A DNA stretch of 57,115 nucleotides, counting the filler, from Dugesia japonica (taxonomy: Eukaryota), in assembly GCA_001938525.1 (NCBI GenBank). It is 6 parts of 6 records of this genome, joined end to end, with 100 filler letters (N's around TTAATTAATTAA, not from the genome) between each part and the next. Parts side by side here need not be neighbours in the genome. Positions count along the whole stretch, not along the records: positions 47,781 to 57,115 come from MQRL01488630.1; 5 more parts are not named here. The stretch is one strand, 5' to 3'. Below, in pieces: positions 2,280 to 57,115 of this stretch. A model generated the notes under the pieces. That model was given only the letters and a program-made list of their open reading frames with translations. It was not told the origin of the DNA and searched no databases. A program made the position numbers and the translations under genes. Position 1 is the stretch's first letter. Each line of letters opens with the position of its first letter.

Positions 2280-3580
2280 TACTATTTTATTTTCAATATG
2301 AGAACAGTAATTTTTAAAATTAACATATTAAAATAAGAAAAGTAAGCCTTGTGTTTTCAATAAATCGTTTAAAATTTATTTAAATTTATTGTAAATTTAA
2401 TAGTACAATTGAAAGGTCACAAAAATGTATAAGAAAAATTTTAAAAAGTTGATAAAGAATCTAAGAAAAACAAATACTTGCCGTGTCAAGCATGGATGGA
2501 GACCGGAGAGGACTTACACGCACGCTTAACAGTACGTCGTTGGATATCAGAGGGAGAAACATTAAACAAGCGAGGAAGGAAAAGACTTCAAAAAATTACA
2601 GAAATTCATTTAGGTTATTTTGTCGAAAAAATCGAAAGAAACAGCCGAATTCCATTAACTGATTTCATTGTTGTATTTTAAGAAAAATTTAACGTTTCTA
2701 TTTCATAAACAGTAATATCAAAACATCTAGATTCTCTCTGTTATTTGCTGAAATACGCAAAGTTTGAACCTGAAAAGCGAAACTCCATGAGAACAAACAA
2801 AAGCAAAAAGAGTTCGTTGAATGTCATTTGGAATTTCAAGCTCAAAATAAACCTATTTTGTACATGGATGAAACGAACTTAAATTTTCATATTTCAAGAA
2901 CACGGTGCAGAAAATTGAATGGAACAAGATGCACTATTTTAGCAGCTGTCTCAGAAGATGATAATATTGATATAATAGACTGCATAAGCACGATCGGAAT
3001 TATTCATTATGAAATAAGAAGAGGTTCGTTACACAAAGAAAATGCAAATGCATAGATGGAAACCTGCCTTCATCAAGCAATGGTTAAACATGGTGAGCCA
3101 GTTGTTATGGTAATTGATAATACACCTTATCACAGTAAAATTGAAGAAATTTTTGCAGGAACAGGAATTTCGTGAAAACAGGATAATCAGACTTGAACCC
3201 TATAGTCCAATGTTTAACCCCATTGAAAATGTTTGGCCTGTTGTAAGGAGTTATATTAAAAGAGAACTCTCAAAAAAGTTGTCAAGTATTCTTAATAGCA
3301 GAAGCGAATTAACAATCAGAAAACAGAGAGTAAGAGCCTTAGAAAGCTTTATTGAAGAAGATCTGCAGACAATTACACCAACCATATGAGCCAATCTCAT
3401 CGCAAGTATTCAAAGAAAATTCACTGTGGTTCTTAACTTAGAAAACAAACAATATTAATGAATTTATGTAAAATATTTAATATTAAATTCATTGTTTTAA
3501 ATCGAAATAAAAATTCACATTTTAAAATTTCTTATTCTTATATTAAAGTTTACTATTCTCATTTTGAAAATAAAATGGTA
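2280..3580 (+). mobile_element. Full-length but decayed IS630-Tc1-mariner DNA transposon (DDxE, spacing about 35)
   Basis: TIRs TACTATTTTATTTTCAATATGAGAACAGTAA / TTACTATTCTCATTTTGAAAATAAAATGGTA with TA on both sides. Fragmented transposase at about 2478-3450: ILYMDETN, VMVIDNTPYH, LEPYSPMFNPIENVW, with frameshifts and stops. Confidence 0.9.
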
Positions 3581-7442: not shown

Positions 7443-7825
7443 AATTTTCGTAAAAGTCAATATTAAAATAAAGGTAATTTGAGAAGCATAGAAAATTTTT
7501 TTTTATTGATTGTTACAATTTATTAATTTTCTTCAAAAAATGTTTTTCCTTAAATAAGTCTGTTAAGAATATAATAAAAAACATTTAAATAAAAATGATA
7601 AAATAAATAAAATCAATTTTTTAATTTTACCAATAATTATCGGAAATAAAACTGTATTAAAAAGTGTAAAAATGAAATTTGTATTTGATTATTTTAAAAT
7701 TTAAATATTTGCCTATCAAAAATTTGTTTAAATTTTAAATTTATAAAAAGATTTAAAAAAGATTTAAATTAAAATTCTTTAAGTGTTAATTGTTTTCATT
7801 AAATTAGTAAATATAGAAATAAATT

Positions 7826-8455
7826 ATGGATTACGAAGAGAATCTACCGGTAAATAAATTTAAACATCCGGAAATTTGTTCAAAATCTTCAGCAAAAAAA
7901 GATTTCCTACGACCAAGAGATGAAAGAATTGATTTTGAAAAAAAAGTTAATACTTCACAGATCATTCCAAGAATTAATGGAAAAGCACGAGTTGGAGAAT
8001 ATTGTGAGATCTGTGAATATGCTGCTACTGATTCTGCAAATTATCTTGATCATATTAACGGTAAACAACATCAAAAAAATATGAATATGTCAATGAGAAT
8101 CCAACGGTCTACTGTAGAAGAAGTTCAAATCAGGTTTGACGCGAATCTATTAAAAAAATCAGGCAAATATCGAAATCTAACAGTTCAAGAAGTGGTAGAT
8201 ATTTTAAAGAAAAAGAATCTAAAGAAAGATCCTAAACACAATTGTAATAGTGATGAAGAGAAAGGCAATACTGACGTTCCGAATTGCGATATTGAAGAAG
8301 AGGAAGAAAAGATTAAGGATAAAAGACGAGAAGAAAGAAAAGCAGGGAAAAAGAGACGATTTGAACCAATTGAAAATAATGATTTAGACGATGATGATGG
8401 AATGACAGCAATTATGGGTATTCAAGGATTTGGTGGAAGTAAAAAAGGTCATTGA
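7826..8455 (+). CDS. ZMAT2: Zinc finger matrin-type protein 2 (Snu23 homologue, spliceosomal B complex)
   Basis: Hallmark segments LRPRDERIDFE, YCEICEYAATDSANYLDHINGKQHQKNMNMSMRIQRSTVEEVQIRF and C-terminal MTAIMGIQGFGGSKK. Confidence 0.93.
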   Translation: MDYEENLPVNKFKHPEICSKSSAKKDFLRPRDERIDFEKKVNTSQIIPRINGKARVGEYCEICEYAATDSANYLDHINGKQHQKNMNMSMRIQRSTVEEVQIRFDANLLKKSGKYRNLTVQEVVDILKKKNLKKDPKHNCNSDEEKGNTDVPNCDIEEEEEKIKDKRREERKAGKKRRFEPIENNDLDDDDGMTAIMGIQGFGGSKKGH

Positions 8456-44640: not shown

Positions 44641-44652
44641 TTTAATAAATAC

Positions 44653-45078
44653 TTTCAAAGACGTATGACATAACCATATGAAGCGCATTTCTCAATTGAA
44701 CTTTACGAACATACATGGCCTCTGTTTGTCTGTTTGTGACATAATATTGCCAGAGCTTACTGGAAACAATATCATGATAACTATTAGCATTGAGTGTTAA
44801 ATTATCGTGATGGAAAACGTTACATTTTGAGTTTGGATTGGTCAATACAGATGAATGATTTCCACCTAAAGTAGCAGCTATATATGCGGCAGCAATCATG
44901 TTGTTTCCAGGATTTGATAATAACGGACAGTTCATAGCAAAGTTTTGCGGAATTTGAGAAGAAAAGGCGGACATGTTTGGAAGAGGTATACTTGATAACA
45001 CACCATTGTTAGTAAAATGAGAATTATTTGGTGAAAAAGAAGTAGACATCGGTTGCTGGTGATGAGAATTAAAATTTC
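44653..45078 (-). CDS. GLD2: Exon of a probable GLD-2/TENT2 cytoplasmic poly(A) polymerase (start of the catalytic region)
   Basis: AG acceptor at 45080-45079, GT donor at 44652-44651. Ends HDIVSSKLWQYYVTNRQTEAMYVRKVQLRNALHMVMSYVFE, the helices that precede the GSS motif in GLD-2. The GSS/DxD exons are not seen. Confidence 0.7.
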
Positions 45079-45122
45079 CTATTAAATATTTATTTATTCA
45101 AACAAAAACTAAAATATATAAC

Positions 45123-46633
45123 CTTCCGAATTAATAAATGCAATATTTGAGCAAGAAATTGGCTGACAAGAACCAGTGGAACCAGATAAATGATTAATTT
45201 CAGAATTTCCTAATTCAGAATGCGAAATAGTTTGACTGACGTTCTTATTGATCAACTTTTTCTTTTTGTTACTATCGCAATCCGTATTATCTATAGTTAC
45301 TGTATTTTTTTCTTCAGATTCAACGACTAGTTTCTCCTTAAAATCCACAGGCTTATTACAGGGTTGAGAAAATTTACTTTCATTGATTAATGACAAATCG
45401 CGATCATTATTTCCCAGTTGGCATTTGGTAATTTCAATAGTATCCTCATTACAATACACAAATTCCTCTTCCTCGACATTCACTATAAATTTTGCAGAAT
45501 CCTTTTTCTGATTTTCAAAAGAATCAATAACAATTTTCTTAAAATTTTGATTTTTCTTTGACTTAGAAATCTCAGAAACACTGCTATTACATTCCGAAAT
45601 TGTCGGTTGATAATTGTTTATTTCCGTAACAGAATGATTTGAATTCAATTTCACACAGCTGTCAGTTCTTTCTATATTCTCTCCGCCATTTGACAATAAA
45701 AGACAATCTTTGGATTTATTGTGAACAGCCGAATCATGATTCTGCAAAATAGCATTCGACGGTTTTGATACTATTCCATTGAATTGAATATAGTTTGAGT
45801 GAACACCTTCATTGTCTAATTTTATATTTTCCATTCCTTTAACATGATGACTTTTACTTGCAGTTTTTGAATTATATTGCAAATCTGATCCTGATAAAGA
45901 CACAGCATTCGCCTCATTATTCGAAGATTTCTTCCATTCGTTATATTTAGAGTTTGAATTGAAGTTGTTATTATTTGGTGATTTAGAGTCTTTATTTTGA
46001 TAGAATGATTGATTTGACGATAACGAACCTGCTGAATTGTCATGAAACAGATGGAAATCATTGTTTACTGATTTATTATTAGCAATAGAGCCAGGAAATG
46101 TTAATAACGGTCCATTTGAATTCAATCCTGATTGATATCTTCGAGAATGATTTGTTTCAGAATTGAAATTGGTATTTGCTCGCGACGAACGATTTGAGTG
46201 CATTGACCGAGAATAATTTGATGAATTCTGATAATGATGATTATTTTGACCTGCAATAAATCGATTATTAGATCCAGAACCAGAATAGGAAGTGTTCATT
46301 GGAAAAATTGAAGAATATTGCTGTGAACTGAAATTTTGATGATTCCCATGATAGTGAGATGAGAATGCATTGCCACTGATAATTGGTGACTGAGAAGAAT
46401 TAGAATGTGTTTGATTATTACTAAGCTGATTAGGAATGAAATGATGTGGAGAATTTAATAAATTTGTTATATGGTTATTAATATTGGATCCATTCAAGAA
46501 TGTATTATTACAATTAGCACTCGAATTATTGCCGGGAGAGCAAAATAAATTATTGACTATATTTGGTGACATAAACCACGAATTTTGATGAGTGTGATGG
46601 TGCTGCTGTTGTGAAAATGCATTGTGATAAGAT
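45123..46633 (-). CDS. GLD2: Large Asn/Ser/His-rich exon of the same gene
   Basis: Open 1.5-kb frame from an AG acceptor (46635-46634). A 44-nt GT-AG intron (45122-45079) joins it in frame to the next exon (…NSE-G-NFNSHHQQPMSTS). The first exon was not located. Confidence 0.7.
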
Positions 46634-47254
46634 CTAAGTTTGAATAGAAAGTTTAAACATTGTACTATTACACTTTTACGAAATTTTATTGAAAATACAC
46701 TTCAAAATAACTTCGTTAATATGAAAAAAACAATATATTCCGAGAATTTTAATTGATAAGAACGAATTTATGTTATTTAAGATAATAGATTAATCTTAAC
46801 TGATTTAATAATTAGGGCAGAAAAGTGACTTAGAAAGACCTATCTAAACATTAATTTTTGGATCCACGGATCTGATTGGCAACGCCTCATGCAACCTACT
46901 TCCAATAATCGCTTAAGTTTCTGCACAAAAATTTTAAAATATTTATAACTGATCTTCAACTAATGTTATGTTTAGCAATATTACTTTGATTACCAATTCA
47001 ACGATGCTCCTTAATTCTTGAATAGAGATGACAGGAAGTCTCTTGAATGTAGGTAACATCACATCAATTACATTTATATTGATAAACAATATTGAAACAC
47101 AATCTAAATGGTATCTTAGAATTATTACTAGACATTTGTATTATTTTTAAGGTTGTGAAAATATTTTATAATTTCAAGAATTACTTTTATAATTTAACAA
47201 CTCACTTTTAAGTTATTTAAACTTTTAAGAATTGTTCAAAAATGGTTTAAGCTT

Positions 47255-47452: not shown

Positions 47453-48299
47453 ATTTTTAATAAATTGTTTCAAGTATTTTGTCTTATTTGTGTAGGGATA
47501 GGATTTTTTTGTGCGTTTTGTATATATATATATATATATATTTAAATAACCAAAGAACAATGGCAATCTTTTAATAAAAACTTTTAAACGCCATTTCAAT
47601 ATATACTTCTGCACTACATGTTTCGACAGCATAACTGTCATCTTCGGATACAATAATAATTCTTTTTTTGAAAATTCTTTNNNNNNNNNNNNNNNNNNNN
47701 NNNNNNNNNNNNNNNNNNNNNNNNTTAATTAATTAANNNNNNNNNNNNNNNNNNNNNNNNNNNNNNNNNNNNNNNNNNNNTATTTATTTATTCTCTCTCA
47801 TATTTATAGTTTCCTTTTCCTCTATTTAACCATTGCTTCAAATTTCAATTTTTTTTACATTTCCTTTTGAGTTACAGCTATTCTATACTCGTTCTAGCCC
47901 AAAAAATTACTGGGGTCTCCGAAAATAATTCTGACCCGGAATTTCCTCAATAAAATTCCGTACTTCACTCATTTAATCGTCTGAGTCTCCATATCTATCA
48001 AATTTCTTTAAAATTCAACTTTACTGGTGATCATCGGTCCTGAAAGGGCCCTCAAGTAAGTTATCTATAAATATCCAAAACAGAAAAGAGAGAAGATATA
48101 AGCAAATTGTTAGCATACATAAACACACCATACCATGTTAGCATTAAAGACTCATTTAATAAAATAATTGTCAAATCATAGTTCCTACATTCCAAATCAC
48201 TGTTTACTGTTAGATATCATAATATATTCTATTTGATCACAAAGAATTCCTGGATCGAACAAGAGAATTGTTGTCGAAGTATTTCTCTGCCGGGATACT

Positions 48300-49348
48300 C
48301 AAAATTGATAAACTACTCTGCCGGAGTATACATAATTGATAAATCGCGCTGCCGGGATTGTTGATTGGTAAACTGCTCAGCTGGTTTTGGTGCGTGTGAA
48401 TCATTTGATGAACACTCTGTCGGGGTTGGTTGGACTCGTATAATACTGTTTGGTTGGGCTTGATTGTTTGCTTGCAGGTGGTAATATAGGTTATTTACAC
48501 AGGGATGCAGTGTAGAGCTGCCACAAAAATAGTGTCATTCGAGGAGATTTATCGACCGCAGAATAGATTTTCGTCAGATTCTGAAAAAGGCCATCTGTTT
48601 GTAGGTTCGGGGGTTGGAATTTCTGGAATTCAAAGACTCGTGTTTCACCGTTGTTGAGCTCGTTGTGCTAAATAATTAATTTCCATCGCTATGGGTCTCT
48701 CTGATCGAAACTGATTAAGTCGGATTGGTTCGCCGGGCGGCTTCTTGGCGGCAACATTACTGGAATGGGTGTACTTTAGAGTTTTTCGTATTTACTCCTC
48801 AATTTTCCATACTCATTAGTCAGCTCNACATTCTCGATAATTAGGTTCTCATTTTCTTCTTTCATCTCTTGTTTCTTTTGGTTTAATCGTTCATTTTCCT
48901 GAATCAGATATTTGTTGCTATTTTCCAAGTTTTGGTTTATGATCATTATATCCTCGTGTGCTTCTTTCCATCGTTTACTCTCATGCTTCCAGCTTTCTTT
49001 ATCCCTTATCTCTTTTTGAATACGGTTGAAATGAATTTCTTGAGCATGCAGTCGAGAATTGTTATTTTACTCGATGGTTTTCTCTAACATCTTTGCCTTC
49101 TTTCGATTCTAGTTTAGTTCGGATTGTAATTCGTCAATTGTACTGCTCATTCGCTTTCTCTCTAATGACGTCTCTTTTTTAATCTCTTCTCGGTATTGTA
49201 ATTTAAAATATTTAATTCGGCCCTCTGCTTCATTGATTCGGTCCTTCTGACCCTCAATTATTTTTTCCAACGTTCGTTGCCTTTCTTGGGACTTTGTTAA
49301 TCTCTCTTTTAGTCGGTAAATTTGGTTTTCATAGAATTTTGCTGCCAT
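48300..49348 (-). pseudogene. Coiled-coil accessory ORF of the Gypsy element (decayed)
   Basis: MAAKFYENQIYRLKERL… stays in frame through isolated stops for about 190 aa of E/K/Q/N-rich heptads, then turns Pro-rich (STPIPVMLPPRSRP). Confidence 0.6.
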
Positions 49349-49816
49349 TTCCTGATAATTATAATAAGGTTTTCAAATTGATATTTTAGTGCTCGAAAGT
49401 TAATTCACGTATTTTACTTTTATAAGCTGAGCTAGTTTTAGTTTATTTGTTCATTTATTTTGTTTTATTATGCTTATAATTGTTGTGGTCATATATAATT
49501 TAATCAGCCGGGATGCTCTCTTGGTTCTTTTAGATTAACAATCAATTGGGTTTCGCTAGGGTTTATTACTTGGATAATAACATTTGACTTCGACTTTTTC
49601 TTCAGATCTGCATTCAAAATTACTTCTTGTTTACTTCGTGTTACTGCACTCTTCCTCATAACATACTTCAACGTTACTCAAAATTTATTCTACTCGGCTT
49701 CATCAATCGTGTTCGGCTCCTGTGATCCATAATTTTGGTCATACTATTATTATTACTAGATACTCTAATATTACATTTCGAGTGTTTCAAGCTATTTACA
49801 CAATTTTCACTTCTCT

Positions 49817-51790
49817 CTACCACACTTGTTTGCCGGCCCTTTTCCCTGGGTTACTGGTCCTCATCATCGCCTTTGGCGGATGTATATATTTATCGCTTAA
49901 TTCCAACAACTCATGTCGGACCTTTGGTCTCGAATATTGTCCTTTCTTTGCCTTTATACACAAAATTATCGTAATTATTAGTACCATCGTAGCTATTCCA
50001 CTGACTCCGCCAATAAGTCTGATTGGCCATCCTTCATTCGTTTCTGCTAATATAGTTGCTGTCGTCACTTCTTCTAATTGTTTCGCTTCTTCTGGTTTGA
50101 TTTTAAGTTCGTTGAACCTTGCTATCGTTTCAACTATTTGTCGAACATCTCATTTTTCTCTTGACTTAACGTTTTTGGATGAATGTCCGATTCTTCATTT
50201 CGGTTTATAACGGTTTTATGCTGAATTACCGCATTCAATTCCACTTTGTCAGTGGTACTAGTATTGGTACTGCTACTCATATTTCTCGTTGCTAGTGTCT
50301 TGAATGTCCTTACTTTTTTATCTCGTGTCGTCTTTGCTTTGCTTGTTGACTTGATTGTCACTGTTGATTCACTTTTTATTTTTATTGTCANTTCTAACGT
50401 ACTCAATGTTTGCTTTGTCATAATTCNTGACTTTGTAACTCTTTTTGTCGTTCTACCTGGTGGTAACTCCCACACTATCATATATTCCACTTAGAACCAT
50501 ATTCCATATCTCAGTTGTATCTCACGTTTTAATTCTCGTTGATTGTCATCCCATTTATATTTTGATAATAAATCGCCGTTTGCCCAATCTTTGAGTGATG
50601 AATAATGTCCGATTCTCATATTTTCTTTTCCTTCTCGTAACACTGATAAGTCTACAAACTTTCCTGCCCAATTTATTTGAATTCCGAGCGCATTTCCTCT
50701 GCTGTAAGGTATATTGCCTCGTTTTACATCGAATCATCTTCCTCGTTTTGTCCAAAGTACTTCATGCGCCCCTTCTGGTGTAAATCTCCATAAGTGTGAT
50801 ATATATGATAGATGTTTCTTTGCACAATATTTCTCATTTCTACCCCATGTTGGATTATTCTTTCTCGTATTGAGTATAAAATATGGAAATAATTTCTGTA
50901 GTAGATACTAAATATTCTACTGACTTCAAAAATTCCTGAATCTTTGTAGTAACTTGACGTCCACGATTCCTCTTGGTATGGATTTCCATATTCTCCTTCA
51001 TATTGTATTATGCGCATTTCTTGTGGTTTTTCTCCTGTTATCTCAAGATTCACTTGCCAAGATTCTCTAAATATCTTTACAGTCATTGAGTGTCCTTTAG
51101 CGTGTATACCGGGTTGTACCCATGTAAATGGAGGTCCATATTCTATTTCCGTATAATGACCTCCTTTTGTCATGACACGTCTCAATCCTTTTCTCGTTAT
51201 CGTCTGTATCTTTACCTCGAATCTCGTTATATATACTCGATGCTCCATCTAAACATCTTCATAATCATAGCATTCTTCTCCATTGCTTACACGTATCATT
51301 ATCACAATTATTATCATTTATATCCACAGATTTCCTGGTAATAATATTTGACTCTCTCCTCTGGGGTTTTCCATTTCAAATTCTCTTCTTTTATCTGCTT
51401 TTTCTCCTTTGAACGTGATCGTTATCAAAATCAATGACACTGTTATTGACGTTATTATAGTCGCTGATAGTATTAATGTCCAACATTTGTTATTCTCACT
51501 TTTACGTTGATTTGGTATTATTGCCGGACCCGTTGTTCACACACTCTCGCTCCAAATCACCTTTATCATTATTAACGCTATTAATAAATATAACCATTTA
51601 TCCATCATTTGACCGTTTTATTTGATCCACTTGTCGCTGTCATGGTCTCATTAAGTTCATATAATTTCGTTGACCGAATTCCAATTCTTGTGGGCCTCAC
51701 CATTACCACTATCGTTATTATACACATTGTAAATATTATTATTGGTATCGATGCGATACATGTCCACGCAATTTTCTCCCATCGTCTTCC
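49817..51790 (-). pseudogene. Env-position membrane protein region (several TM/signal segments, ectodomain, Thr-rich stalk, TM anchor)
   Basis: Hydrophobic segments near 51780, 51595, 51485 and 51330; ORFs 51248-50724, 50490-50134 (Thr/Ser/Lys-rich) and 50068-49817 (LIGGVSGIATMVLIITIILCIKAKK). Confidence 0.6.
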
Positions 51791-53253
51791 AAGTGACGGG
51801 TTTTTATCTAATATTACTGCCTTCTTTCTGTTCTTGTAGATTGATTCGTTTATAGCTGTTGTTATTTCTTCGTACTGTCATCTTTTATTACTGGTATCTC
51901 TGGTAGAGAGACCTTTTGTCCCCTTTCTTCTTCTTCTGCTTCCATTTTCTCAAGCTCTTTGCATTCTTTTTCCATTTCCTTTTGTTTCCATATTAGATAC
52001 CTTCCATCATGTTGCCATTTTTGTTGAATTTTTATCCATCTCGGTATCATATCTTCTGGATCCTCTTCGCACCCTTTTGTGATGTCCCACATATCATATT
52101 CGAACTCTTTGCACCATCTCGTTAGATACCACTGATCCATAATTTTGTCTGCTTCTTCCATTTCTTTTCTTTTTTAGATTCGACATTTCTCCGTATTTCG
52201 TAATTCTTCATATATTCTCCACCATTAAAGTATTAATGTCCAACATTTGTTATTCTCACTTTTACGTTGATTTGGTATTATTGCCGGACCCNTTGTTCAC
52301 ACACCCTCGCTCCAAATCACCTTTATCATTATTAANGCTTCCGGGTCCTCTTCGCAACTCTTGATAATATCTCTCTCATTTTCCGTATGTTAATCAGTTT
52401 CTCTGTCGCTCCATGTCGTCTCAAACCAATTTGATCTGTCGTTCAATGTTTTAATTACATATTCGTTATCCTTTTGAATCGTTTTGAGCTCGTCTGTCGC
52501 TTTTGGTTTTTTTGTTACAAGTTTTTCGTATTCGTTGTCACTGTCGTCGTCTTTCAATTTAATTTCTGTGCCTGTTTTACACCGATTCTGTACTTGTCGT
52601 CTTTTATTTCTGTTTATTCGACTTTTTCTCTTTCGTCTCTTTGCTCTTTGCTCCTGTCTTGAGTCATTGATACCTTCTTTTTGATCGCTTTCCTCTTTAT
52701 TTTGTTCAATTTCCAATTTCTTTATTAATTCTTGACATTATACTTTCAATGTTTGTAAGAAAAGTAGCGATCAATCTCAATTTTCAACTTCTGTAAACGT
52801 CTCGAATTGTTTCCACATTGTCATAATTTTCTGTCCGTCTTCCTCTGACGTGTTCAGCCTCTTAATTTTTGTGTCTGTATCTTCTATGAAATCCATCACA
52901 TCATCTCCTGCAAACGTGTTCTGCTTTATCTCTTGATTCTGGTTTGTTTTGTTCTCCGCTTTTGGTTGAACCGTCTTTTTCAATGCTGTTCTTTGTCTTT
53001 CTAGTGCGTCGAATGCTTTTTTACCTCATATAATCTCCTTAGCTGCTGTTTCTTTGTTCCATAATTGCTTTTCATTGTTTTTCATATAATTGTCCGTAAT
53101 TATTGACAGCAGATCACCTCTTACTTTTGAAAAGTCAACGTCCTCGTCGATTCGCGACTGCTACTTGATACGATAAGGTTGCTCTTCCATTTTGCGTTGT
53201 ACCTTATGTAGTTCTTTAACTGTTTTCTCCAATTGATGCCTCATTATCTCTGC

Positions 53254-54524
53254 ACAGGTTAAACATAGCTTCTGAAACACTGTTTTTGGTATTGGCAACT
53301 CGATTACTTCATCCTCTGCTTCACATCGGAGACATCCTTGACTACCTTACGCCGGATGGTTTCTTAACCAGCATCTTTTTTGTGCTATCATTATTAAGGA
53401 GTCCTTAACCTTGATCTCCGTCTTTTGGAAACATTTATTACATAAATTCTCTAAGTCTCCCGCAACAATTGGACATTTAGTTGGTTTCTTTAATACACAT
53501 CGATTACACTTCTTGGCTTCTGGTTGCTCTTGATTTACATGTATAATATCCCATATTTTCTCTTCAGCTTCTTTCAATTGTAGTTCCATTATTATTACAC
53601 ATTCCAAGCATACGTCTTTTAACTTGTTTTCGGTTGTTACGATCCCGGTTTCTATTCGATTTTTATTACTATATTTGCATTTGACTTCTCCTTGAATTTG
53701 ATTACTTGTTAATTCTCGTTTCTTTTGTCCCACGTTAATCTATGATAACTGAATCTCTGTACGGAGATTAATTTGACAGCTTCTACATAATACTTCGCTG
53801 CTGTCATGTCGATTGGACATTTTGTAGGTCTGAAGGTTTTACAATTTCCTTCCCAGTTCAATGGTGAATGTACTTCTTCATTTTTGTCGATCTCGAATCG
53901 ATTTGACTTATTAAATGTCCATCTTTCTTGTTGCCTCATTGTAATTCTCTGTGAAATTAGTAGACATGGTTTACACAATGATTTCCAGTTGTTCGCCGCT
54001 CCGTGACTTTTTATTCTGTATCGTCCACATCTTGGATTATCGCATTGTCGATCCTCTTGAATTATTCTTTTTTCCACTGAATGATAATATTGATTACGTA
54101 TATCTCGTCTATTTTCAATTATAGTTAAATTTTTTTTAGTTGATATTTTCTCATAATCTCCTCAGTGGTTAGTTGAATATTTATTCTTATGGGTTTAGCT
54201 GCTGATAAGCCTTTTTAATGATTGTATACACATCTAATTTTGCTACGCATTATTTGTCTCGCATTTGTCATACAATTATTACACCATTGTTTTTTATTTC
54301 TTCTTGGTCACGTTTAATTTTATTACTACTTCCATACACTGTATACAAGCTGCTCTTTCGATGTCGGTTTTCTCTCTCCACATTTGTAATGACATTTGAT
54401 TAATCCCTCTATCTACATGTATGATTTTATTCTGTGTTACTCGTAAGGATTGATAACACATTTTTAACAATTGACTCTTGTTCAAAGGTGCCGTTTCCGG
54501 TCTCGTTTCTTTACATATATTACA
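53254..54524 (-). pseudogene. Tandem C4 zinc-finger-like array (Cx2-4C-x17-19-Cx2C)
   Basis: Examples: CNRC-x18-CNKC, CLRC-x19-CLTC, CDNPRC-x17-CKPC, CNIC-x18-CYQS, CKYS-x19-CLEC. Confidence 0.7.
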
Positions 54525-54604
54525 CTGATTACTTTCTTCGCTTGATTCTGGAGCTCCAAACTTCCTTTTATTGGTTTCGCTGTTAACATCATCACAAGAT
54601 GTCT

Positions 54605-57115
54605 TTATCTGATCGAATATCTATCTTCTTTATCCGGATTATCTAATTTAAATCGAACTCGTTTCATTTTACTCGTTTCTGGTTCTGCTTCGACTAAGTT
54701 TTCCTTGTTTACTAATATCTCCTTGACTGCTACTTTACATCTTGACACATGTACAATACTTGGTTTCTTTAAAGGTTTCCCCAATTCTTTTAATTTCAGA
54801 TTTTTTGCGGTTGTCTCGATTACCATATATGGGCCTTTATTTGCTCGCTTTAATTTATCCGTTTTTCTAATATCGATTGTCTGTGTATTTACTAACACTA
54901 GATCTCCCTTTTTAAATGATTGAGCTTCTGATTTACGATCAAAGAATTCTTTGAAACTTTGTTGACTAAATCTTGCATTTGCTTCAGCCAATTTCCACAT
55001 CTCTCTCATTCGCTCTTTCATGCCTGTCACATACTCATCTTCGTCCATATATTGTGAAATTGGTGGTTGATATTCTAAATCGATAGACATGTTACATTCT
55101 CATCCATACATTAAACTAAACAGTGTTGCTCTTGTCGTTGGATATACTCCCATTCTGTACGCAAATAGACATAAATTTAAATGTTTGTCCCATTCTCTTT
55201 GATCTTTTGATGCATAACTCAATAACATTCTTGTTAAAGTTTGATTGAATCTCTCTGTCATTCCGTTCGTCTACAGGTGATATGCGGATGTCCGTAATTT
55301 GTAGATATTGAAGAAACTCGTAACTTCTTTCATCAACTCGCTCAAAAAATTCTTTCCTTGATCCGTTAAGATTTTCTTTGGAGGACCGTAACGCCTAAAT
55401 ACTTTGGCGATGATTGCTGCTTTTTGGTTTCTCAACGCAAAGGCTTCCGGAAATTTTGATAATTAATCAACCACTGTTAAAATGTATATCATTCCACTGT
55501 CCGTTGGTGGTAATGGCCAGATTATATCCATCGCTATTATATCCATTGGTGCTGCTGGCAATGGAATTGGTTGTAATGAAACTTTGAATTTCTTCCCGGT
55601 TCCTCTCCTTGCTGCGCATATCTAGCATTTTTCTACCCATGCTTTCACGCTTGTCGTTATATGTGACCAAAATTATTTCGCTCTCAATTCTGATTCTGTC
55701 TTTTTAGCTGACATGTGACCTCCTAATATTCCATTATGGTATTGTTCCAAAATCTTTGCTCGTCTATTTTTAGGTATAACCAATAACATTTTGTCGCTCT
55801 CTTTCATCCTTAACCATCCGTTTATTATTGCATATCGTCCTCCTCGTTTCTTTAGATGTTCTTTCATACTTTTTTTACACTCGACTTTACTCAAATCGTA
55901 ATGTTTTAGATAATTTAAAATTATCTTAATCTCTTCATCTTCATCTTTATCCTTTTTCAGACCTTTAAAATCTTTATTCTCTGCTAATATCATGCATAAT
56001 GTCCGTATTTCTTGATTCATTAACTGGTGAATATCGATTACCTCATTATCTTGTATTTTAGTTTCCACTTTGTCTTCCGCTCTTGACATGTAATCTGCAT
56101 TCGCATTCGCTTTGCCAGATTTATACTTTACTAAAGGTGCATATTCTTGAGGTTTCATGACCCATCTTGCCATTCGATTTACCTGTAACGGTTTTTGCCC
56201 GATCATTATAAGTGGTTGGTGATCCGTATAAATCACTAATTCATGTCCGAGTATCAATGGTTTCTTAAAATCCGGTTGCACCAATATCGGTGCTGTCATT
56301 AATTTTTCTCGTATGATCTCGAATGCCTTTTGATGTTCGTCAGTCCATATGAATGTCACATCTTGTCGTACTAATGATTGAATTGGTTTGACTATCACCG
56401 CAAATCCTTTAATAAATTTTCTGTAATAGTTCGCCATACCTAGGAATACTATATCATTTACATTCTTTGGTACTGGTAATTTCTTTATCTTTTCAAGATT
56501 TGCTGGATCTGGTTGCTTTCCGTGATCTTAAATTAAATGACCTAAATATGTCACTTGATTTTTCGCACATTCACATTTTGTCGGTTTTACTCTAAAATTC
56601 TTCATTCTTAATCGTACAAATACATTTCTTAAATCTTTTAAGTGCTCTTCAAATATCGTCGAAAATATTAATAAATCATCGATATATACCATACTCTGTG
56701 GTATTCCATGTGCTACAAAATTCATTGTTCGTTAGAATGATGCTGGTGCATTCGTCAATCCGAATGGCATCCTCATAAATTGATATAAGTCTTTTTCTGC
56801 TGAAAATGCGGTTTTCTCTTTGTCTGCTTCTTCTATTTTGATTTGCCAATAACCACTCCTCAAATTTAATGTTGTGAATACCTTTGCATTATATAATAAC
56901 ACTAACATCTAGTTTATGTCTGGTAATGGATACGTATCCTTTTTGGTTTTAGCATTTAGTCTTCGATAATCAATACAAAATCTCGTTGATCCGTCTTTTT
57001 ATTTTAACTAATACAACTGGAAATCGCCATCGTGAACAACTCAGCTCTAACACTTTATTAAAAAGCATATCATCGATTTTCTCGGCGCAAATCTCATTAT
57101 CCGCCACTGCCTGTT
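54605..57115 (-). mobile_element. pol: Ty3/Gypsy pol (RT-RNase H-integrase), decayed
   Basis: RT: RFCIDYRRLN, SGYWQI, MPFGLTNAPASF, VYIDDLLIFS. RH end: YTDHQPL…NANADYMSR. IN: HHCC, MDII, TDQGKNF, TNGMTERFNQT, KGPY. RT-RH-IN order. Multiple stops and frameshifts. Confidence 0.97.

Follow-up and report, generated by a model that had tools for sequence, protein, structure and literature searches.

The window, that is, the whole 57,115-nucleotide stretch of Dugesia japonica DNA that was analysed, is AT-rich and eukaryotic, with a GC fraction mostly between 0.19 and 0.30, and contains a GC-richer block (0.34–0.36) that extends from about position 48000 to its end. The minus strand of this block encodes a decayed pol, in which Pfam found the order RT–RNase H–integrase (RVT_1, 1e-28; Integrase_H2C2, 1e-14; rve, 9e-10) that assigns the element to Ty3/Gypsy. 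Pol runs off the window end, beyond which lies the 5' part of the element, and 12 internal stops are spread over 836 codons. The RNase H of the window copy is without a large internal part, at about 56230–56250, and its Pfam match is split at residues 285–289 of the pol translation (P0003). Neither a 3' LTR nor a clear polypurine tract was identified within the window. The element and its ORFs are arranged as follows.

54605..57115, minus strand: decayed Ty3/Gypsy pol with RT, truncated RNase H and integrase (H2C2, rve), from Pfam and translation
54797..54907, minus strand: GPY/F-type SH3-like integrase C-terminal module (KGPY), with a weak PF24626 match (E 0.1) and an alignment to the ENA protein P0025
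54605..54620, minus strand: pol stop (54607–54605) together with the overlapping first codons of the finger frame, which is -1 relative to pol
51862..54620, minus strand: putative extra ORF3 of about 900 codons, fingers followed by a charged tail, broken by stops and frame breaks
51862..53253, minus strand: charged, probably helical ORF3 tail, from translation (P0004 has no Pfam match)
49817..51536, minus strand: decayed type-I-membrane-like ORF with a signal-like segment at about 51479, a Thr/Ser-rich stalk and a TM segment at about 50023, from translation
48500..49372, minus strand: decayed ORF, coiled-coil-like, where the GC-richer block ends away from pol, a putative part of the element

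No chromodomain follows the GPY/F-type module: PF00385 is absent from P0003, and Pfam matched neither of the translations P0002 and P0004. Judged from these translations, the element is not a chromovirus in the sense of one carrying an in-frame chromodomain at the integrase C-terminus. The membrane-like ORF gave no significant Pfam match and no usable Atlas match; it is env-like by position only, and an env-like protein is possible. A short ORF with a TM-like segment (51605–51877) is located between ORF3 and the membrane ORF. A 111-nt sequence occurs in near-identical duplicate (97%) at 52229–52339 and 51469–51579, so that the signal-like sequence with which the membrane ORF starts is present a second time inside the ORF3 tail; this may reflect an internal rearrangement or an assembly artefact.

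Directly after the integrase, the finger frame encodes about eight tandem C4 units.

54446..54524, minus strand: finger A, CNIC-x18-CYQS (CxxC-x18-CxxS), from the motif count and nucleotide spans
54336..54394, minus strand: finger B, CHYKC..CIQC, spanning a frame break, with a short spacer of about 10–11, from nucleotide spans
54219..54283, minus strand: finger C, CNNC..CIQS, spanning a frame break, with a spacer of about 13–14 and Ser as the last ligand, from nucleotide spans
53964..54044, minus strand: finger D, CDNPRC-x17-CKPC (Cx4C-x17-CxxC), from the motif count
53776..53852, minus strand: finger E, GNC..CRSC, spanning a frame break, with about 18 residues between the Cys pairs, the first ligand missing and a PTKCPI loop
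53599..53679, minus strand: finger F, CKYS-x19-CLEC (CxxS-x19-CxxC), from the motif count
53431..53508, minus strand: finger G, CNRC-x18-CNKC, with a PTKCPI loop and, in the model, a helix that starts at the second Cys pair
53254..53334, minus strand: finger H, CLRC-x19-CLTC, from the motif count

On the minus strand, positions 53230–54640 hold ten CxxC motifs and three complete C4 units. The corresponding means in 2000 dinucleotide shuffles were 0.55 and 0.001, and none of the 2000 reached either observed value; the same count found neither CxxC motifs nor C4 units in the pol, tail and membrane regions on either side. The initial annotation had described five clear units and three broken ones, and both the translation and the motif count against shuffles bear this out. 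A hydrophobic residue precedes the second half-site in 8/8 units. The units had also been called GATA-spaced, which holds for at most six of the eight because the spacers of B and C are too short: the spacing CxxC-x17/18-CxxC is found in G and, with one ligand lost, in A and E, and is approached by D, F and H. The claim that several units share [RK]PT(KCPI) stands in its exact form, PTKCPI, for E and G, while A and B have looser variants only. Recent DNA duplication as the source of the units was ruled out by their best DNA self-match, which is 26 nt long (E 0.085).

GATA fingers are marked by the hallmarks W-R-R and LCNAC. Both are absent from the in-frame loops of the units, and no Pfam GATA or LIM match was obtained with the five unbroken units and P0004 at E values up to 10; beyond the spacing, a GATA identity is unsupported. 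The Pfam matches of units to DUF7685 (E 0.03) and zf-RING_5 (E 0.27) were rejected. In the PDB, sequence matches to the fingers were confined to PINCH LIM domains, with non-significant E values of 0.2–3.2. In a model of unit G (pLDDT 71), a helix runs from the second Cys pair over residues 23–40, and the N-terminal half has no resolved structure. Foldseek returned no match to this model, and VIA-align nothing at Z >= 5, its best alignment being to an unrelated chain (Z 2.9, rmsd 3.9 over 38 residues). A three-unit model reached a pLDDT of only 38. The MAFFT alignment of the units shifts unit H by one Cys pair, weakening profile A1. The best Atlas score was 0.88, for the ORF of finger D, and double-zinc-ribbon clusters scored 0.84; we treat these as leads only. 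As compared to GATA/LIM-type C4 treble-clef fingers, the units are alike in the CxxC-x17-19-CxxC spacing and in the predicted helix from the second Cys pair, but differ in their variable spacers and their number of about eight, as well as in the missing Pfam match and GATA hallmarks.

The finger frame opens at 54620, overlaps the pol stop and has no Met before finger 1, all of which the initial annotation had noted. It had missed that the frame extends about 460 codons beyond finger H, to about 51862. In the window copy the finger part is broken near 54410, 54365, 54294, 54250, 54215, 54135 and 53790; three of these seven places are backed by indels in other copies, and the remainder are deduced from translation. 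The breaks at 53790, 54130–54137 and 54293–54295 can be ascribed to decay, since other copies show indels there. The density of stops in the 3' frame, 11 in 642 codons, is similar to that of pol. The tail contains a cluster of Lys and Arg at about 52597–52647, which may be NLS-like or nucleic-acid-binding.

From two DNA runs of two studies, one of which may be the source of the window sequence, 2163 and 1913 contigs align to the stretch, most of them 80–95% alike. Their summed depth was in the thousands, against 8–21 for individual long contigs, a depth that does not equal copy number. In three runs the finger depth was 0.56–0.63 of the pol depth. The finger region belongs to an abundant Ty3/Gypsy family as a whole, and the contigs link fingers and integrase, so that the multi-finger module adjoining the integrase, as originally annotated, is a property of the family. 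Some contigs skip stretches roughly the length of one finger, either 105 letters at 53603–53709 or 53200–53420 with 27 letters in its place, which suggests that finger number is variable among copies. Over 52825–53144 the depth of related contigs is about tenfold lower, and this segment of the tail may be hypervariable or frequently lost by deletion.

The uneven depth, together with the contigs that skip whole units, would also fit a captured host sequence or nested insertion that the family carries as passive cargo. A synonymous test did not oppose such an origin. It covered 39 of the 40 listed differences, the best-supported of 913 substitution rows; five were dropped for uncertain frame and two were stop codons. 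Synonymous changes made up 1/12 in the finger frame as compared to 6/20 in pol, with no sign there of selection on the fingers. The differences tested are probably private changes acquired after insertion, which makes the test uninformative; if anything, it speaks against selection. Against passive cargo, contig records 2, 10, 11 and 18 keep the frame across the 3' fingers, their net difference being a multiple of 3, and stops are about as dense in the finger frame as in pol. Moreover, the finger-frame query (P0004) found no credible homolog, host-like or otherwise, among 1.84 billion cluster representatives. We consider a passive origin highly improbable. The single match to P0004, a bacterial-type repeat adhesin along the tail stretch, was rejected as spurious. 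In the one raw RNA library, 1 read among 10.5 million fell on the stretch, and no RNA splice joints were seen.

The initial annotation had proposed that one restored base at EDR/IFDQ would fuse the fingers to Pol, and that copies might reveal a continuous integrase–finger frame. The contigs of apparently two other copies keep the offset instead, and their length differences fit an offset and not one frame. The comparison used the lengths and gap letters of contigs from other copies that bridge the junction (records 4, 5 and 14); these probably represent two copies only, each present in two runs, 13–17% diverged and themselves decayed. Record 4 spans 432 window letters with 428 of its own and 4 gap letters, leaving a remainder of 1, the value of the offset, as against the 0 of a continuous frame. 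Record 14 spans 418 window letters with 415 and 3 gap letters; its remainder of 0 again corresponds to the offset, where fusion needs 2. Subtracting record 15 from record 5, on the assumption that both are one copy, leaves 0 gap letters over 54568–54657; these two records carry a net frame change inside pol. A fusion broken by a lost base requires a letter that is missing from the window copy, and records 4 and 14 both contain none. As a control, record 13, which crosses two internal breaks, gave the value that a continuous frame predicts there. A single open frame from the integrase into the module is therefore present neither in the window copy nor, by these length counts, in the bridging copies.

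These counts bear on the possibility that, in active copies, the fingers form an in-frame integrase C-terminus that steers integration, the offset being the lesion of an amplified defective sub-lineage. The array occupies the exact position of the chromodomain at the integrase C-terminus of Ty3/Gypsy chromoviruses, as described in PMC2774666, and finger 1 has no preceding Met. The nearest integrase relative points the same way: P0025 (ENA protein, cluster of 6; 44–46% identity over the integrase) reads on in frame past the integrase into a protease and a membrane region. But the offset is shared by the window copy and apparently two diverged others, the 12 indel rows listed of 43 include none at the junction, and a C4 array following the integrase was found in 0/63 integrase relatives (17 and 46 from the pol searches), the only approach being two isolated CxxC in P0025. 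An integrase tail in active copies is, in our judgement, unlikely.

P0025 is the sister of the window element in a quick tree (SH-aLRT 96%), and with P0028 makes up the two nearest relatives. Its single 1294-aa frame encodes RNase H, integrase, an aspartic protease, a hydrophobic segment, two Cys-bearing repeats and a TM segment; the protease placed after the integrase is an atypical order. P0025 thus resembles the window element in the integrase but differs from it in continuing in frame with the protease and membrane region, and neither the finger frame nor the tail frame is similar to it. Its long in-frame extensions indicate that integrase fusions occur in the lineage. The C-terminal pol residues of the window copy, RYSIR, which would be lost in the fusion proposed at EDR/IFDQ, are similar to RYPLR in P0025 and to KYNLR in P0028, where the motif lies two residues from the end; a RYSIR-like motif is present in only 2/63 integrase relatives and was chosen after viewing them.

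A second way of joining the two products would be programmed -1 frameshifting at the overlap, yielding a minor integrase–finger fusion while most integrase stays plain. The finger frame is indeed -1 to pol and overlaps its stop, and the offset looks conserved. Nevertheless, the pol frame has no slippery heptamer between 54540 and 54700: the sole slippery-type heptamer, at 54652, is out of the pol frame and, in the window copy, is separated from 54620 by three stops in the finger frame. The overlap that is open in both frames measures only about 5 codons. We regard frameshifting as very unlikely. The geometry of the overlap also fits a stop–start pair, although the window copy has no Met there. 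Since the length counts show the offset from pol in further copies as well, we favour a separate ORF3 over an integrase tail, and consider it likely that the finger frame is an ORF of its own.

Other searches for the finger array found no counterpart. Among longer proteins (376–2000 aa), 0/435 candidates matched the 3' fingers, which is weak evidence, and scans of metagenome and viral contigs with the finger ORF or the integrase confirmed nothing. Among the open-access papers searched by title and abstract start, none described a post-integrase C4 array.

In its position, ORF3 belongs to a known class. Sense additional ORFs located after pol but before the 3' LTR (aORF-3S) are described as well known and conserved (PMC7264820), and ORF3 shares their position and orientation; those described there are mostly env-like membrane proteins, and the word 'zinc' is absent from the main text of that review. 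Chromoviruses are alike in the RT–RH–IN order, the GPY/F-type module and a putative binding module directly after the integrase, but the window element has a C4 array in another frame in place of a chromodomain. The planarian giant Gypsy elements Burro/GYPSM1 are likewise Gypsy elements with many accessory domains, including a RING-type finger motif (PMC6431247). They differ in that a giant polyprotein contains both these domains and env, the latter placed between gag and pol, and the part of their description available to us contains no post-integrase C4 array; conversely, none of their BIR/MATH/BCL2-like domains was detected in the stretches scanned after pol.

The closest parallel is CERV of the Caenorhabditis element Cer1, which PMC10309623 presents as a spliced post-pol ORF with a proposed C4 loop that is needed for genomic RNA export. 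Both elements are Gypsy elements with a large, non-env post-pol ORF that has a proposed C4 finger and no outside homologs. In that account, each CERV subunit has a single Cys loop, and both its spliced mRNA and its export role are proven, whereas ORF3 has about eight tandem units and its route of expression is conjectural. No CERV-like protein appeared in the searches with window sequences. Extra post-pol ORFs, domain-laden Gypsy elements and chromodomain integrases are all known already; taken as a separate ORF in a decayed copy, the array is a good lead rather than a mechanistic surprise.

From sequence features, we propose that ORF3 is a separate accessory ORF encoding a nuclear nucleic-acid- or chromatin-binding protein, expressed via splicing or stop–start reinitiation, and hold this to be somewhat more probable than its negation. 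In this scheme, each C4 unit would bind one zinc and form a treble-clef-like knuckle followed by a helix. The protein would be translated from an RNA that is spliced or subgenomic, or else by stop–start reinitiation at the pol stop, a process known in viruses and in SART1 (PMC5972666). Aided by its basic tail, it would then act in the nucleus as an accessory regulator on the RNA of the element or on DNA/chromatin. Its possible tasks include genomic RNA export, as for CERV/Rev, transactivation and counter-silencing. Granted a separate ORF, the nuclear nucleic-acid-binding role taken by itself falls slightly short of an even chance.

The fingers of a separate ORF3 might instead bind proteins, as LIM-like modules or ubiquitin-system adaptors, and serve to manipulate host defence or to tether the integration complex in trans. 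The PINCH LIM matches, the lack of GATA DNA-binding hallmarks, and the ubiquitin- and apoptosis-related domains attributed to planarian Burro elements in PMC6431247 are consistent with this. However, the LIM matches are non-significant, the tail has a strong basic cluster and there is no known partner, and we find a protein-binding function rather doubtful.

A bolder extension of the nucleic-acid-binding role is that the eight-unit array is a new repeat domain that reads DNA or chromatin and thereby guides integration, whether it acts in trans as part of ORF3 or, in active copies, as a fusion to the integrase; this seems to us decidedly unlikely. If the array does bind DNA or chromatin, retroelements would have a further, new means of choosing their targets or of resisting silencing, and if the number of units varies among copies, the array could be a targeting code that is modular and evolvable. 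Most accessory genes of invertebrate Gypsy elements await characterisation, and CERV demonstrates that RNA export can depend on one of them; an array of tandem C4 units without a relative among the cluster representatives searched would add a new repeat domain.

Outside the GC-richer block, the window contains host-like genes: on the plus strand, one for a C2-domain membrane protein (318–1529) and one for a matrin-type C2H2 finger protein (7823–8455), and on the minus strand long Asn/Ser-rich ORFs at 44642–46701, of which the one that was scanned had no Pfam match. Two ORF pieces at 2774–3389 (plus strand) resemble, by eye and by their motifs, a DDE transposase of the Tc1/IS630 kind.
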